The notes under the pieces: model-generated | Told to the model about the DNA's origin: nothing | The model's input: the letters and a program-made list of their open reading frames with translations, nothing else | Databases searched by the model: none | Made by a program: the position numbers and the translations under genes | Source: Octopus vulgaris | Lineage: Eukaryota | NCBI GenBank assembly: GCA_951406725.2 | Contig: OX597839.1 | Location: 41,167,015-41,231,014, forward strand | Direction: 5' to 3' | DNA: 64,000 bases | Shown: one piece after another, positions 4,591 through 53,868 of the stretch | Layout of the letters: each line of letters begins with the position of its first letter | Position numbering within the stretch: the stretch's first letter is position 1

Positions 4591-4955
4591 CTATATATAT
4601 ATCTAACTAGCACTCCATCGGTTATGATGATGAGGGTTCCAGTTGATCCGATCACTGGAACAGCCTGCTCGTGAAATTAATGTGCAAGTGGCTGAGCACT
4701 CCACAGACATGTGCACCTTTAACATATTTCTCAGGGAGATGCAGCATGCTACAGAGTGTGACAAGACTGGCCCTTTTGAATTACAGGTACAATACATTGC
4801 TACCCAGCTGATTGGACTGGAGCAATGTGAAATAAAGTGTCTTGCTCAAGGACACAAGACATTGCCAGAAATTGAACTCACAACTTTGTGATTATCAGCC
4901 AAATACCCTAACTACTGCGCCTTCACATATATTATATAGTTTTATATTATATCTA

Positions 4956-5185
4956 TTTTTTTACTACCCACAAGGGGCTAAACACAGAGAGGACAAACAA
5001 GGACAGACAAGCGGATTAAGTCGATTATATCGACCCAGTGCGTAACTGGTACTTAATTTATCGACCCCGAAAGGATGAAAGGCAAAGTTGACCTCGGTGG
5101 AATTTGAACTCACAGTGTAACGGCAGACGAAATACCGCTAAGCATTTCACCCGGCGTGCTAACGTTTCTGCCAGCTCGCAGCCTT
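4956..5185 (-). mobile_element. SINE family B (Nin/Deu-like central domain)
   Basis: GCCTTTCATCCTTTCGGGGTCGATAAATTAAGTACC motif on the minus strand, flanked by a 59-bp direct repeat. Other copies at 6155-6345, 19158-19390, 45050-45490, 62970-63200. Confidence 0.85.
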
Positions 5186-5422
5186 AGCCAATTACCCTAA
5201 CTACTGCGCCTTCACATATATTATATAGTTTTATATTATATCTACTGAAGGATGATCTCTGATTGGCTCTTACACTTCAAAACCAATCAATCATGTTTGT
5301 TTGATCTGGCTGATGGATTGACCTCAACTTGTATCAATTTGGATGAGGGCTAAACCCCTTACACTCTAAGAAGAGCTGACCTATATCCAGGCCATGACCA
5401 TGCTACATTTACTACATCATAA

Positions 5423-18901: not shown

Positions 18902-19095
18902 TACACAGAAAAGAAACAAGGAGAGAAAAAATGCATGTAGGAGCTAATGATCTATCATGGCGTCCTGACTTTGGACAGTGGTCAGACGCGAGAGGGACAG
19001 TAGGGGAGATACACACACACATATATGCACTCATACACACATGTATATATGTTTATGTGTATCGATACATTTATAGTGGTGTGGGTGATCACTGG

Positions 19096-19148
19096 GGATC
19101 ACTCGGCTCGTCCGTCGATGAAGAATGCGGCTATTCGCGTGAACTGAT
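19096..19148 (+). pseudogene. 5.8S rRNA 5' fragment (dispersed copy)
   Basis: GGATCACTCGGCTCGTCCGTCGATGAAGAATGCGGCTA..GCGTGAA versus conserved animal 5.8S GGATCACTCGGCTCGTGCGTCGATGAAGAACGCAGC. Confidence 0.85.
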
Positions 19149-19482
19149 AGAAAATATAAGGCAGCGAGCTGGCAGAAGCGTTAGCATGCCGGGCGAAATG
19201 CTTTGCGGTATTTCGTCTGCTGTTACGTTGTGAGTTCAAATTCCGCCAAGGTCGACTTTGCCTTTTATCCTTTCGGGGTCGATAAATTAAGCACCAGTTA
19301 CGCACAGGGGTCGATGTAATCAACTTAATTCTTTTGTCTGTCCTTGTTTGTCCCCTCTATGTTTCGCCCCTTGTGGGTAATAAAGAAATAGGTGTGGGTG
19401 TGTACTTGTATATCTGCATGCATGCATATATGTATTCTGTTACCTATTTATTTCTTCACTTCTCGCTCCCTGTCATTGCCAG

Positions 19483-19824
19483 GCTGAAGAACTTAACACT
19501 ATCATCGGGAATGCTTTCAAGATGGCCTACGCACAGCAACGTCAACGGCAGCCAACATTCAATGAGCTGATCGAGCGCCAGATCCAGGAACAGAAGGCCA
19601 AGTTTGCTGAGGACCAGGAGCAGGCAGAGAGGGACCTCCAGCAGAAGCTCAACGAGATTGCCACTCCAACCCCGTTCTCAGAGAAGGCCATACAGAGGAT
19701 GGAGATGAGACGACAACTGAGCGAAGAAACAGCGCAGGAGAGAGAGAAGGAACTTGCACAACAACATCACCAGCAGCAACAGCAGCAGCATTCAAGCACT
19801 GCTACACTGCGGAGCTGGCTTTGG
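19483..19824 (+). CDS. SH2D5: Exon: PTB C-terminal helix, coiled-coil and polyQ/H region
   Basis: cattgccag acceptor, gtaagt donor, 342 nt, phase 0/0. AEELNTIIGNAFKMAYAQQRQRQ...; 'IG.AF..AY' is the typical PTB terminal helix. Confidence 0.9.
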
Positions 19825-47759: not shown

Positions 47760-48248
47760 TATGTTTACATATATCTGTATGCATATACATATGTTGGTAT
47801 ATGTTTATACATGTATATGTGTGCATACACACACACCACACACACTCACATGTATACAGACATGCACAAACATATGCCTATGTAGTTAGCTGACTATATA
47901 ATTCTTTAATTTGCATCAATATATTCGTGTGTGTGTGTGTATGCATGCATATATATATAACGCATATGTGCATTATGTGCGTGTGTGTATGTATATATAA
48001 TACAACACACATGCACACACACACACACATACTCATATATATATATATATATATATATACCTACATATATTACCTACCCACAAACACTGAAGCCCATTCA
48101 CACACAGACATACAGAACTTTACCCTAATTCTTTAAAACACCTCAGCTATGTTAATTAGGACTCCCACCCCCACTTCTGTTTCACTAGAACTCCTCCCTC
48201 TCCCCTCATTATATATATACATATATATATATACATATATATACATAC

Positions 48249-48313
<65 letters not shown>

Positions 48314-50046
48314 TATATATATATATATGTACATATGTATATATATATATATATATATATACATATATATGTATGTATGTATATATATATATTTATATAC
48401 ACTCACAGTTAATGAAGTGTACAGATGGTTTTTCTTAAGTGTGCAATGTCTCTCTCTCTCTCTCTCTCTCACACACTCTCTTTTTCTCTCTCTCTCTTTT
48501 ATTTCATTCCCTCTCTTTCTCTTGTCTGCCTCTCTCCCTCTGTCTGTCTCTCTCTGTCTTTCTATTTAACTTTCCTTTTTTCTTCCTTCTTCTGTCTGTC
48601 TGTCTGTCTCTGTTTTTCTCTCTAAATTTCTCTGTCTTTGTCTCTCTCTCTCCTTCTCTCTCTCTCACTGTCTCTGCCTATGTCTCTCTCTCTCCTCTCT
48701 CTCTCACTGTCTCTGTCTCTCTCCCTCCCTCTCTCACTGTCTCTGTCTCTCTCCCTCCCTCTCTCACTGTCTCTGTCTCTCTCCCTCCCTCTCTCACTGT
48801 CTTTGTCTCTCTCTCTCTCTCATATCTTGTTTTATGTATGTAAGAAGTTAAGTAGGTAACAGATAACCACCCCAGCACTGCTACAACTGCTACCACCACC
48901 ACCACCACCACCACAACCACAACTACCACCGCCTCAACCACCAACACTAATGCTACACTATATCACCACCACCACCACCACAACTGACTGTCACCACCAT
49001 CACCACCACTATCAGCCACTGCCATCATTCCATGACCACCACTTCCCACAAGAGCCACTGCTACAGCCATCACCACAACCATCACCACCATCACTGCCTC
49101 CACCAGCCACTACTGCCATCATTACTACCACCACCACCACCACCACCACCACCACAACCACTGCCGCCGCCACTACCACCTCCACCACCGCCGCCGCCAC
49201 AACCCCCCCTCCCTTTACAGGTTCAGGCCATAAAAACAACAACCTCTTTTCCCACCACTAACATCAATTTTCCACATTCAATTTCACAGATGAGCTTCGA
49301 ATAACAACAGCAGTGGTAGTGATGGTGGTGGTGGTGGTGGTTGTGGTGGTGGTAGTAGTGGTGATTGATGGTGTTGAAGTGGGGTAATGATGGTGGTGAT
49401 GGTGGTGGTATTTTTATTGATGGTGGTGGTAGTGATGGTGGTGGTGGTGATGGTAGTGGTGGTGGTGATGGTGGTGGTGATTGATGGTATTGAAGGGGGT
49501 AATGTTGGTGGTGGTGATGATTGATGTGGTGGTCATAATGATAATGTTGGTAGTAGTAGTAGTAGTGGTAGTAGTGGTAGTGATAGTGATGGTCACAGCA
49601 ATTGTAGTGGTAGTGGTGGTGGTGTTAATATCAATGATGGTGGTGGTGGTGGTAGAGGTGGTTGTGATGGTGATGGTTGTGGTGATGATTGATGGTGGTG
49701 GTTGTGGTGGTAGTAGTAGTAGTGGTCATAGCGATGGTTTTGTGGTATGGTGGTATGTTTACATATATCTGTATGCATATACATATGTTGGTATATGTTT
49801 ATATATGTATATGTGTGCATACACACACACACACTCACATGTATACATACATGCACAAACATATGCCTATGTAGTTAGCTGACTATATAATTCTTTAATT
49901 TGCATCAATATATTCGTGTGTGTGTGTGTATGCATGCATATATATATATATAACGCGTATGTGCATTATGTGCGTGTGTGTGTGCATGTATATATATATT
50001 TATATATATATATATATAATACAACACACATGCACACACACACATA

Positions 50047-50081
<35 letters not shown>

Positions 50082-50266
50082 ACATATATTACCTACCCAC
50101 AAACACTGAAGCCCATTCACACACAGACATACAGAACTTTACCCTAATTCTTTAAAACACCTCAGCTATGTTAATTAGGACTCCCACCCCCCACTTCTGT
50201 TTCACTAGAACTCCTCCCTCTCCCCTCATTATATATATACATATATATATATATACATATATATAT

Positions 50267-50306
<40 letters not shown>

Positions 50307-50318
50307 CATACATACATA

Positions 50319-50373
<55 letters not shown>

Positions 50374-51551
50374 ATATATATATATATTTATATACACTCA
50401 CAGTTAATGAAGTGTACAGATGGTTTTTCTTAAGTGTGCAATGTCTCTCTCTCTCTCTCTCTCTCACACACTCTCTTTTTCTCTCTCTCTCTCTTTATTT
50501 CATTCCCTCTCTTTCTCTTGTCTGCTTCTCTCCTCTGTCTGTCTCTCTCTGTCTTTCTATTTAACTTTCCTTTTCTTCCTTCTTCTGTCTGTCTGTCTGT
50601 CTCTGTTTTTCTCTCTAAATTTCTCTGTCTTTGTCTCTCTCTCTCCTTCTCTCTCTCTCACTGTCTCTGCCTTTGTCTCTCTCTCTCCTCTCTCTCTCAC
50701 TGTCTCTGTCTCTCTCCCTCCCTCTCTCACTGTCTCTGTCTCTCTCCCTCCCTCTCTCACTGTCTCTGTCTCTCTCCCTCCCTCTCTCACTGTCTTTGTC
50801 TCTCTCTCTCTCTCATATCTTGTTTTATGTATGTAAGAAGTTAAGTAGGTAACAGATAACCACCCCAGCACTGCTACAACTGCTACCACCACCACCACCA
50901 CCACCACCACCACAACCACGACTACCACCGCCTCAACCACCAACACTAATGCTACACTATATCACCACCACCACCACCACAACTGACTGTCACCACCATC
51001 ACCACCACTATCAGCCACTGCCATCATTCCATGACCACCACTTCCCACAAGAGCCACTGCTACAGCCATCACCACAACCATCACCACCATCACTGCCTCC
51101 ACCAGCCACTACTGCCATCATTACTACCACCACCACCACCACCACCACCACCACCACCACCACAACCACTGCCGCCGCCACTACCACCTCCACCACCGCC
51201 GCCGCCACTACCACCTGCACCGCCGCCACAACCCCCCCTCCCTTTACAGGTTCAGGCCATAAAAACAACAACCTCTTTTCCCACCACTAACATCAATTTT
51301 CCACATTCAATTTCACAGATGAGCTTCGAATAACAACAGCAGTGGTAGTGATGGTGGTGGTGGTGGTGGTGGTAGTAGTGGTGATTGATGGTGTTGAAGG
51401 GGGTAATGATGGTGGTGGTGGTGGTTATGGTGGTACTGATGGTGGTGGTAGAGATGATGGTGGTAGTGATGGTGGTGGTGGTGATTGATGGTATTGAAGG
51501 GGGTAATGTTGGTGGTGGTGATGATTGATGTGGTGGTCATAATGATAATGT

Positions 51552-51583
<32 letters not shown>

Positions 51584-51735
51584 ATAGTGGTAGTGATAGT
51601 GATGGTCACAGCAATTGTAGTGGTAGTGGTGGTGGTGTTAATATCAGTAATGGTGGTGGTGGTGGTAGAGGTGGTTGTGATGGTGATGGTTGTGGTGATG
51701 ATTGATGGTGGTGGTAGTAGTAGTAGTAGTGGCAG
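47760..51735. repeat. ~2-kb tandem duplication (two copies)
   Basis: Unique anchors recur at offsets of 1989-2004; differences are mostly microsatellite lengths. Confidence 0.93.
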
Positions 51736-52959: not shown

Positions 52960-53497
52960 AACATCATCATCATCATTGTTTGACCGTGGTCGAGACAATG
53001 GAATTTACCATGCTGCGCCAGACTTCACGGTCCATCATGTCATTACGGAGGTCCTGTTGCTGGATGCCTGTATCCCTGGAGATTACATCAGGGTAGGAGA
53101 GTGTGCGCCCTCTGGTATTGCGAGTAGATGGCTTCCAGAGGAGAAGAGTAGAAATTACCTCTTTTTCAGCTCTACAACAATGTCCAGCAAACTGGACTCT
53201 CCTACCTTTCACAAGAGATGACACAGGTGGTAATTTCTCATATATTTGCATTTTGGTTGGATGACGCTTCCACGAGAGATTTTGAGCTCGCATAAGGAGG
53301 CGAGTGTAGGTTCCATCCAACCACCTCTCAAGCTTCTTTGATAACGTCCAGGTTTCTGAGCCATATAGTAGAATTGGTTCGACTGTGGCTTTGAAGATTT
53401 CAAGTTTGAAGTCTCTACTTAGATTTGATGACCAGATCTTATGCATGTCATTACAGGCTGACCAGGCCATACCCTTTCTAGTTAGAAAATCTTTTCC
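52960..53497 (-). mobile_element. 5'-truncated RTE-like LINE, ORF C-terminus still open
   Basis: AWSACNDMHKIWSS..FKATVEPILLYGSETWTL..FAGHCCR..LLLWKP, followed by a (TGA)n tail. Confidence 0.9.
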
Positions 53498-53868
53498 AAA
53501 TGATGATAATGATGATGATGAATATGCTTAAGTGAGCAGAGACTGAAAGCCAAGTGGCAGAGTTTTCTGTGGGTTGGACAAGGTGCATGGTGTAGGCGAT
53601 CTAGCAGCAGCTACAACACGCCTCACTTGGCACTCATTGACCCATTGACGACACCTTTTCTTCACGGCTTCACATGCCAGATGGCAGATGATCTGCAATC
53701 TGAGGACTCAGTGTAATCTAATGGTTAAATCAGTTCATATTGAAGCTTGATCTTTTAATTACAGGAACAGTCCATTTTGCATGATATTGTTAGTGGCTGA
53801 GTATACCTGAGACCTATACACTCAATGTAATCTTCTGATAGAATCAGTATGTGGTGAGGCTGAATCTT

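Follow-up and report, generated by a model that had tools for sequence, protein, structure and literature searches.

Structure of the composite insertion

The window, that is, the whole 64-kb stretch of octopus DNA analyzed here, carries at 19078–19400 a composite insertion in which a 5' piece of 5.8S rRNA, an A-rich linker and a complete SINE of family B follow one another in the same orientation within a single pair of direct repeats (Table 1). The initial annotation had described this arrangement, and the repeat GGTGTGGGTG bracketing all parts, the linker and the full-length co-oriented SINE were found as stated. The 5.8S identity of the remaining part also holds, while its length, given as about 53 nt, is corrected to 55 nt. 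The sequence GATCACT occurs twice at the 5' junction, at 19087–19093 and 19097–19103, as the same annotation had reported; the first copy borrows the last G of the repeat, and the duplication likely reflects re-priming at this junction. The last T of the linker may belong to the SINE transcript. Elsewhere in the window, GGTGTGGGTG is present in one copy only (3440, minus strand), and none of 1500 random 34-mers drawn from the window shares 10 nt with the left flank.

Table 1. Features of the insertion and of its downstream context (window positions)
Feature	Positions	Strand	Description
Left target-site duplication (TSD)	19078–19087	+	GGTGTGGGTG; starts with the GGT target motif of the SINE variant
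5' junction stutter	19088–19093	+	Second copy of 5.8S positions 16–21
5.8S rRNA, 5' part (mature)	19094–19148	+	Positions 12–66 of 159; 52/55 identical to the host gene
A-rich linker, 9 nt	19149–19157	+	Absent from 5.8S and from the SINE body
SINE family B, complete, tRNA-type, 233 nt	19158–19390	+	Head, core and tail ending AAAGAAATA
Right TSD	19391–19400	+	Abuts the SINE tail
Putative coding exon (context)	19483–19824	+	114 codons, AG...GT

The window maps to C26:41167015–41231014 of the assembly, and the host 5.8S gene (L004) lies in an array on C20 with a spacing of about 18.4 kb. Comparison with this gene, which the initial annotation had proposed, gives 54 identities of 58 over 19091–19148, and the value of Table 1 when the stutter is left out. 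The 5.8S piece matches Rfam RF00002 with an E value of 7e-4; being partial, it stays under the gathering score, and at the gathering level Rfam, like ARAGORN, returned nothing for the window. Neither ITS1 nor ITS2 is found at the locus. The insertion thus combines the features of Buzdin-type chimeric retrocopies: a piece of cellular RNA lies 5' of a retroelement 3' end in the same orientation, one TSD surrounds both parts, and the lack of spacer flanks points to an origin from processed RNA.

The SINE is 93% identical to the majority sequence of 38 copies and shows, by eye, A- and B-box-like motifs in its head; further copies are present in the window. One of them, an ordinary copy at 4895–5245 (minus strand), has a direct repeat of about 55 nt, the usual length being 8–17 nt. 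The central domain of family B may resemble the Meta domain (MetaSINE/MESC or CORE SINE). The text searched in PMC4824008 and PMC4758252 gives no MetaSINE/MESC or CORE SINE consensus in written form, and family B was assigned to no named SINE.

The exon downstream begins 92 nt past the SINE end and 82 nt past the right repeat, in agreement with the distance of about 90 bp noted before; its putative coding status is read from the open frame alone. Searches against Pfam and PDB gave no significant match for it and did not identify the host gene. Matches to miRNAs near 19006–19088 were discarded as low-complexity noise. Two further parts of the window may be mentioned. An open frame at 52973–53527 (minus strand) may resemble the C-terminal region of RTE-type LINE proteins, and in the list of open reading frames a low-complexity block of about 1.5–2 kb appears twice, 2 kb apart (~48150–49600 and 50200–51700), as a result of local duplication or of an assembly artefact.

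Target sites of the SINE

Ordinary close relatives of the chimera's SINE (L158–L186) display TSDs of at least 8 nt at the monomer end in 16 of 29 cases. Counted by eye, 15 of these 16 duplications begin with GGT, as does the TSD in the window; the low-complexity 10-mer is therefore very likely, judged from its sequence, a true target-site duplication. No 5.8S sequence lies upstream of any of the 24 ordinary relatives tested.

The SINE tails come in two variants: copies ending in ...AAATA are inserted at GGT sites, and others at AGA(A) sites. These variants and their target preference were seen in L158–L186, at 19078–19087 in the window and in the chimeras L018, L039, L070, L074 and L123. Insertion of the SINE into its own internal GGTATTT site accounts for tandem units of about 185 nt, which are frequent. 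No partner LINE was detected in the 578 kb searched: 88 of the 98 tail matches carry the SINE core, and the other 10 are deleted tandem units or 5.8S fusions.

Census of 5.8S fusions in the genome

Two 28-nt 5.8S patterns, searched with at most 2 mismatches in the 2.8-Gb assembly, gave 74 and 67 matches, from which 101 loci were assembled, 90 at first and 11 later. The first 90 fall into three groups: 32 have spacer or array context, while spacer is lacking in 55 that start from the mature 5' end and in 3 that are 5'-truncated. A co-oriented family B head follows within 45 nt in 32 of the 55 and in 1 of the 3, giving 33 family B fusions. With about one SINE head per 15 kb, chance would place a co-oriented head no more than 60 nt from a given point at a rate of about 0.002 per locus, a background that is slightly overstated as it was derived from 23 heads including the chimera's own (22 others). 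The enrichment is several hundred-fold and strictly co-oriented. By eye, the other 25 spacer-less loci include 8 pieces on the heads of three other SINEs, 4 with short tails and 3 on family B 3' pieces; among the 11 later loci, 7 are fusions and 3 have spacer. Fusions to any partner thus number at least about 55 of the 101 loci, a lower bound since the patterns miss older copies.

The 33 family B fusions show 23 distinct 5.8S break points, from 56 to 157, and 33 distinct combinations of break and linker. In 17 of the 27 scorable loci, both parts lie between flanks that match over 9 nt or more, against 1.9% of cross-pairs; 10 of the 27 have no such match, 6 of the 33 have no scorable tail, and a microsatellite makes up one of the long matches. 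Among the 36 family B partners, 33 retain an intact SINE head and 3 consist of a 3' piece alone, and in none of the family B fusions does the remainder of 5.8S reappear behind the SINE. The 5.8S part starts at positions 4–14 in 32 of the 33; most starts lie at 5–9 and almost never at 1, a consistent loss of the first bases. 5.8S-derived 7-mers just upstream, as in the window, were seen in 4 of the 55 loci and in L130. One 5.8S piece, L052, stands alone within a TSD of its own.

In a tree of 38 copies, of weak resolution and without support values, the chimeric SINE bodies are mixed among the ordinary ones, and the fusions use both SINE tail variants. Variants shared between the 5.8S pieces are mostly CpG decay; the exception is position 127, which is C in 16 of 20 copies and which we read as an older rDNA state. 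Two loci on C30, L073 and L131, lie 4.7 Mb apart, have an alike upstream flank and an identical altered SINE start, and are possibly one event duplicated. The 5.8S fusions represent dozens of separate events and not an amplifying element. The initial annotation had expected many copies to indicate a subfamily and a single copy a one-off: many copies do exist, but each was made separately, and the 5.8S-headed subfamily that it offered as its second reading is disfavored by the private break and linker of all 33 chimeras and by the use of both tail variants.

Composition of the linkers

The linkers differ with the place where the 5.8S sequence breaks off. Behind breaks at or before 135 (14 loci) they contain 70 A and 7 T in 91 nt, and behind breaks at or after 145 (18 loci) 39 A and 69 T in 129 nt; L045 falls between the classes, and its linker is a duplicated 5.8S piece. 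Break point and linker composition are correlated (Spearman −0.80, n = 25), and the difference survives dropping the first or the last base (p ~2e-4), with the caveat that the thresholds were chosen post hoc, after the data had been seen. The flanks of the two break classes do not differ, and target-site bias and copy age were ruled out by tests as causes of the difference. The effect was weaker when tested on 25 held-out loci (one-sided p = 0.001; p = 0.019 with the first base dropped, the Spearman test then giving p = 0.10).

In its first form, the rule stated that linkers are A-rich for breaks up to 140 and T-rich beyond. Of eight prospective loci, five fitted and three failed, with four of six fitting among those with a real linker, and clear A-rich linkers stood behind breaks 142 and 156, against the rule. 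Pooling all loci led to a post hoc revision: T-rich linkers lie at the mature end in 12 of 13 cases and A-rich ones in 3 of 15, so that T-rich linkers would occur almost only at the mature end and A-rich linkers anywhere.

Linkers have a median of 7 nt (32 loci), whereas the extra bases at the 5' end of ordinary copies have a median of 0.5 nt (16 copies; p = 0.002). R2 polymerase is described as adding untemplated bases when it runs off its template (PMC2718515, in part). Bases added by the enzyme should not depend on the end of the next template, and ordinary copies carry far fewer of them; for both reasons the linker likely belongs, at least partly, to the captured RNA. We lean slightly toward the view that an A-rich linker is a tail carried by the 5.8S fragment, with which the window's own linker (A-rich, break 66) agrees. 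At the other end, a template could account for the first T following position 157, since the 5.8S source differed from today's gene, as position 127 indicates. Tails of both kinds have been reported: 5.8S ends are uridylated in C. elegans (PMC7472701), and in human cells truncated 18S and 28S molecules carry mixed tails rich in A (PMC1474067). A search in human for truncated retrocopies of 5S and U2 ending in oligo(A) is reported to have found none (PMC5322556).

Capture of other stable RNAs

Among the best 30 U6 loci, 13 continue into a head of one of these SINEs or into a short tail (BLAST), and more do so by eye. The 18S 3' end gave 38 matches, of which the 23 away from known rDNA context were examined: in 4 of them the 18S piece breaks off no more than 3 nt from the mature end and continues as a SINE, a tail or an A-run. 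Since U6 and 18S ends are captured as well, capture of stable-RNA ends is general in this genome.

Three separate 18S 3'-end captures (L139, L142, L147) start 84–90 nt before the 18S end, which suggests that reverse transcription stops at a fixed point within the long terminal helix. Long GC-rich expansions are present in the host 18S (about 2650 nt) and in the 28S (about 4890 nt; L003, L004, L155–L156). Seven dispersed 18S ends (L141, L145, L148, L149, L150, L152, L153) are followed by a spacer that, by eye, is unlike today's ITS1 but mutually alike; on this visual impression they are remnants of an rDNA type that is either older or a second one. Five tandem genes of a U6 variant, about 1.1–1.4 kb apart and with a TATA-like upstream element, lie at C1:139.42 Mb (L099–L103), and the same variant is also fused to SINEs at L104, L114 and L119.

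Origin of the chimera

The unique junctions, the TSD starting with GGT and the flanking repeats found across the class support the first reading of the initial annotation, a template-switch retrocopy within one TSD. On the sequence evidence, we hold with considerable confidence that the insertion is a single-insertion chimeric retrocopy, for which a LINE reverse transcriptase would have been primed at GGT, copied the SINE RNA and jumped end to end onto a shortened 5.8S RNA. Nicking and priming would take place at GGT, the motif being the one observed for this SINE and the enzyme a presumed one; the SINE RNA would then be copied to its 5' end, as the complete copy indicates. From there the polymerase would switch to the 3' end of a 5.8S fragment whose last base is position 66, the A-rich linker being the probable tail of a 5.8S decay intermediate, by a narrow preference. 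A halt 11 nt before the 5' end of 5.8S, with a brief re-priming, may have produced the stutter, and second-strand synthesis with the 10-bp TSD would complete the insertion.

A fused RNA could also have existed before reverse transcription, if an RtcB-type ligase joined a 5.8S fragment with a cyclic phosphate end to a SINE RNA with a 5'-OH. Such a history predicts the same orientation and one TSD just as well, and endonucleolytic rRNA fragments could carry cyclic phosphate ends; what it does not predict are the linkers, with their median of 7 nt between the parts, where ligation would join them directly and to a 5'-truncated acceptor. Tailed RNAs, moreover, end in 3'-OH. RtcB ligation has been shown for human U6/L1 and requires a 5'-OH, being blocked by a triphosphate, including that of an intact polymerase III 5' end (PMC6789731, in the portion cited); 33 of the 36 family B partners retain an intact 5' end, where a triphosphate is expected. 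A jump after the SINE 5' end fits these heads better, and prior ligation seems unlikely to us.

We consider it highly improbable that two independent insertions, of a tailless or A-tailed 5.8S retrocopy and then of a SINE at its end, or in the reverse order, built the locus. The abundance of SINE heads and the solitary piece at L052 would provide the ingredients, but both parts sit inside one repeat pair beginning with the SINE's own GGT motif, no second copy of the linker follows the SINE, and neither the size nor the strict co-orientation of the enrichment across the class would be expected. Least probable of all, to the point of being almost negligible, is membership in an amplified 5.8S-headed SINE subfamily. 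Dozens of 5.8S–SINE copies, the C at position 127 common to many and the similar junctions of L073 and L131 speak for it; against it, the window's break and linker recur in no second locus among the 33 + 7 chimeras, the chimeric bodies are scattered among ordinary copies (in the weakly resolved tree of 38) with both tail variants, and 5.8S carries no internal promoter. An RNA-headed family would have one head–body junction common to many copies, whereas only L073 and L131 look related here.

Relation to known chimeric elements

The single-insertion chimeric retrocopy has its closest counterparts in mammals, where U6, and also U3, U5, 5S, tRNA, 28S, 7SL, Y and 7SK, form small-RNA/LINE-1 retrocopies (10.1101/2025.02.02.635956). 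As far as the consulted part of that report describes them, these likewise have a cellular RNA 5' of a retroelement, in the same orientation and within one TSD, each locus being a separate event without propagation; unlike their 5'-truncated LINE partner, the octopus partner is a complete SINE, and the head is 5.8S with variable 3' breaks and A- or T-rich linkers. Small RNAs fused to SINEs mobilized by a non-L1, tail-recognizing LINE are represented by U6-Mon-1 of platypus and U6-AnolisSINE2, attributed to template switching (Doucet et al. 2015, PMC4476161, in part), and comparable U6–SINE fusions are also present in the octopus genome. Whereas switching is there described as largely restricted to U6/U6atac, heads in octopus are frequently 5.8S, an RNA made by polymerase I.

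Pieces of RNA genes also head entire SINE families: SINE3 has a 5S head, and SINE28 is derived from 28S. SINEU of crocodilians is a further SINE with a non-canonical RNA head (PMC4494074). These families share with the octopus fusions an RNA-gene piece on the SINE 5' end and a proposed origin by template switch; they differ in having master copies and shared junctions, while no octopus junction recurs. The 5.8S fusions are thus at most raw material for an RNA-headed SINE family. The tailless retropseudogenes treated in PMC5322556 are 3'-shortened RNA copies from the mature 5' end, of which L052 seems to be one, but are without SINE or tail. In the same partial source, nucleolar rRNAs are under-represented among human retropseudogenes, in contrast to the common 5.8S copies of octopus.

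The term "5.8S" is absent from the main texts of 10.1101/2025.02.02.635956, PMC4476161, PMC6789731 and PMC4494074, and our search of the openly accessible literature, based chiefly on listed records, found no publication on 5.8S–SINE fusions. The process is known from U6-L1 and U6-SINE; 5.8S as a partner is apparently unreported. The copy at 19078–19400 has no known effect and is probably inert, its 5.8S part being without promoter; the importance lies in the class. This class widens the range of template-switch capture beyond U6 to include a polymerase I rRNA and, in an invertebrate, complete SINEs. The heads of these SINEs are intact, which favors end-to-end template jumping over RNA ligation, an open question for U6/L1. 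The junctions of the approximately 55 fusions may, with about equal weight for and against, form a fossil record of germline rRNA quality control, with U-rich tails on full-length molecules and A-rich tails on decay fragments, and the same end-capture would keep supplying SINEs with new heads. Provided that the linkers are RNA tails, the sites of cleavage, adenylation and uridylation of octopus 5.8S would be predicted by the genome.
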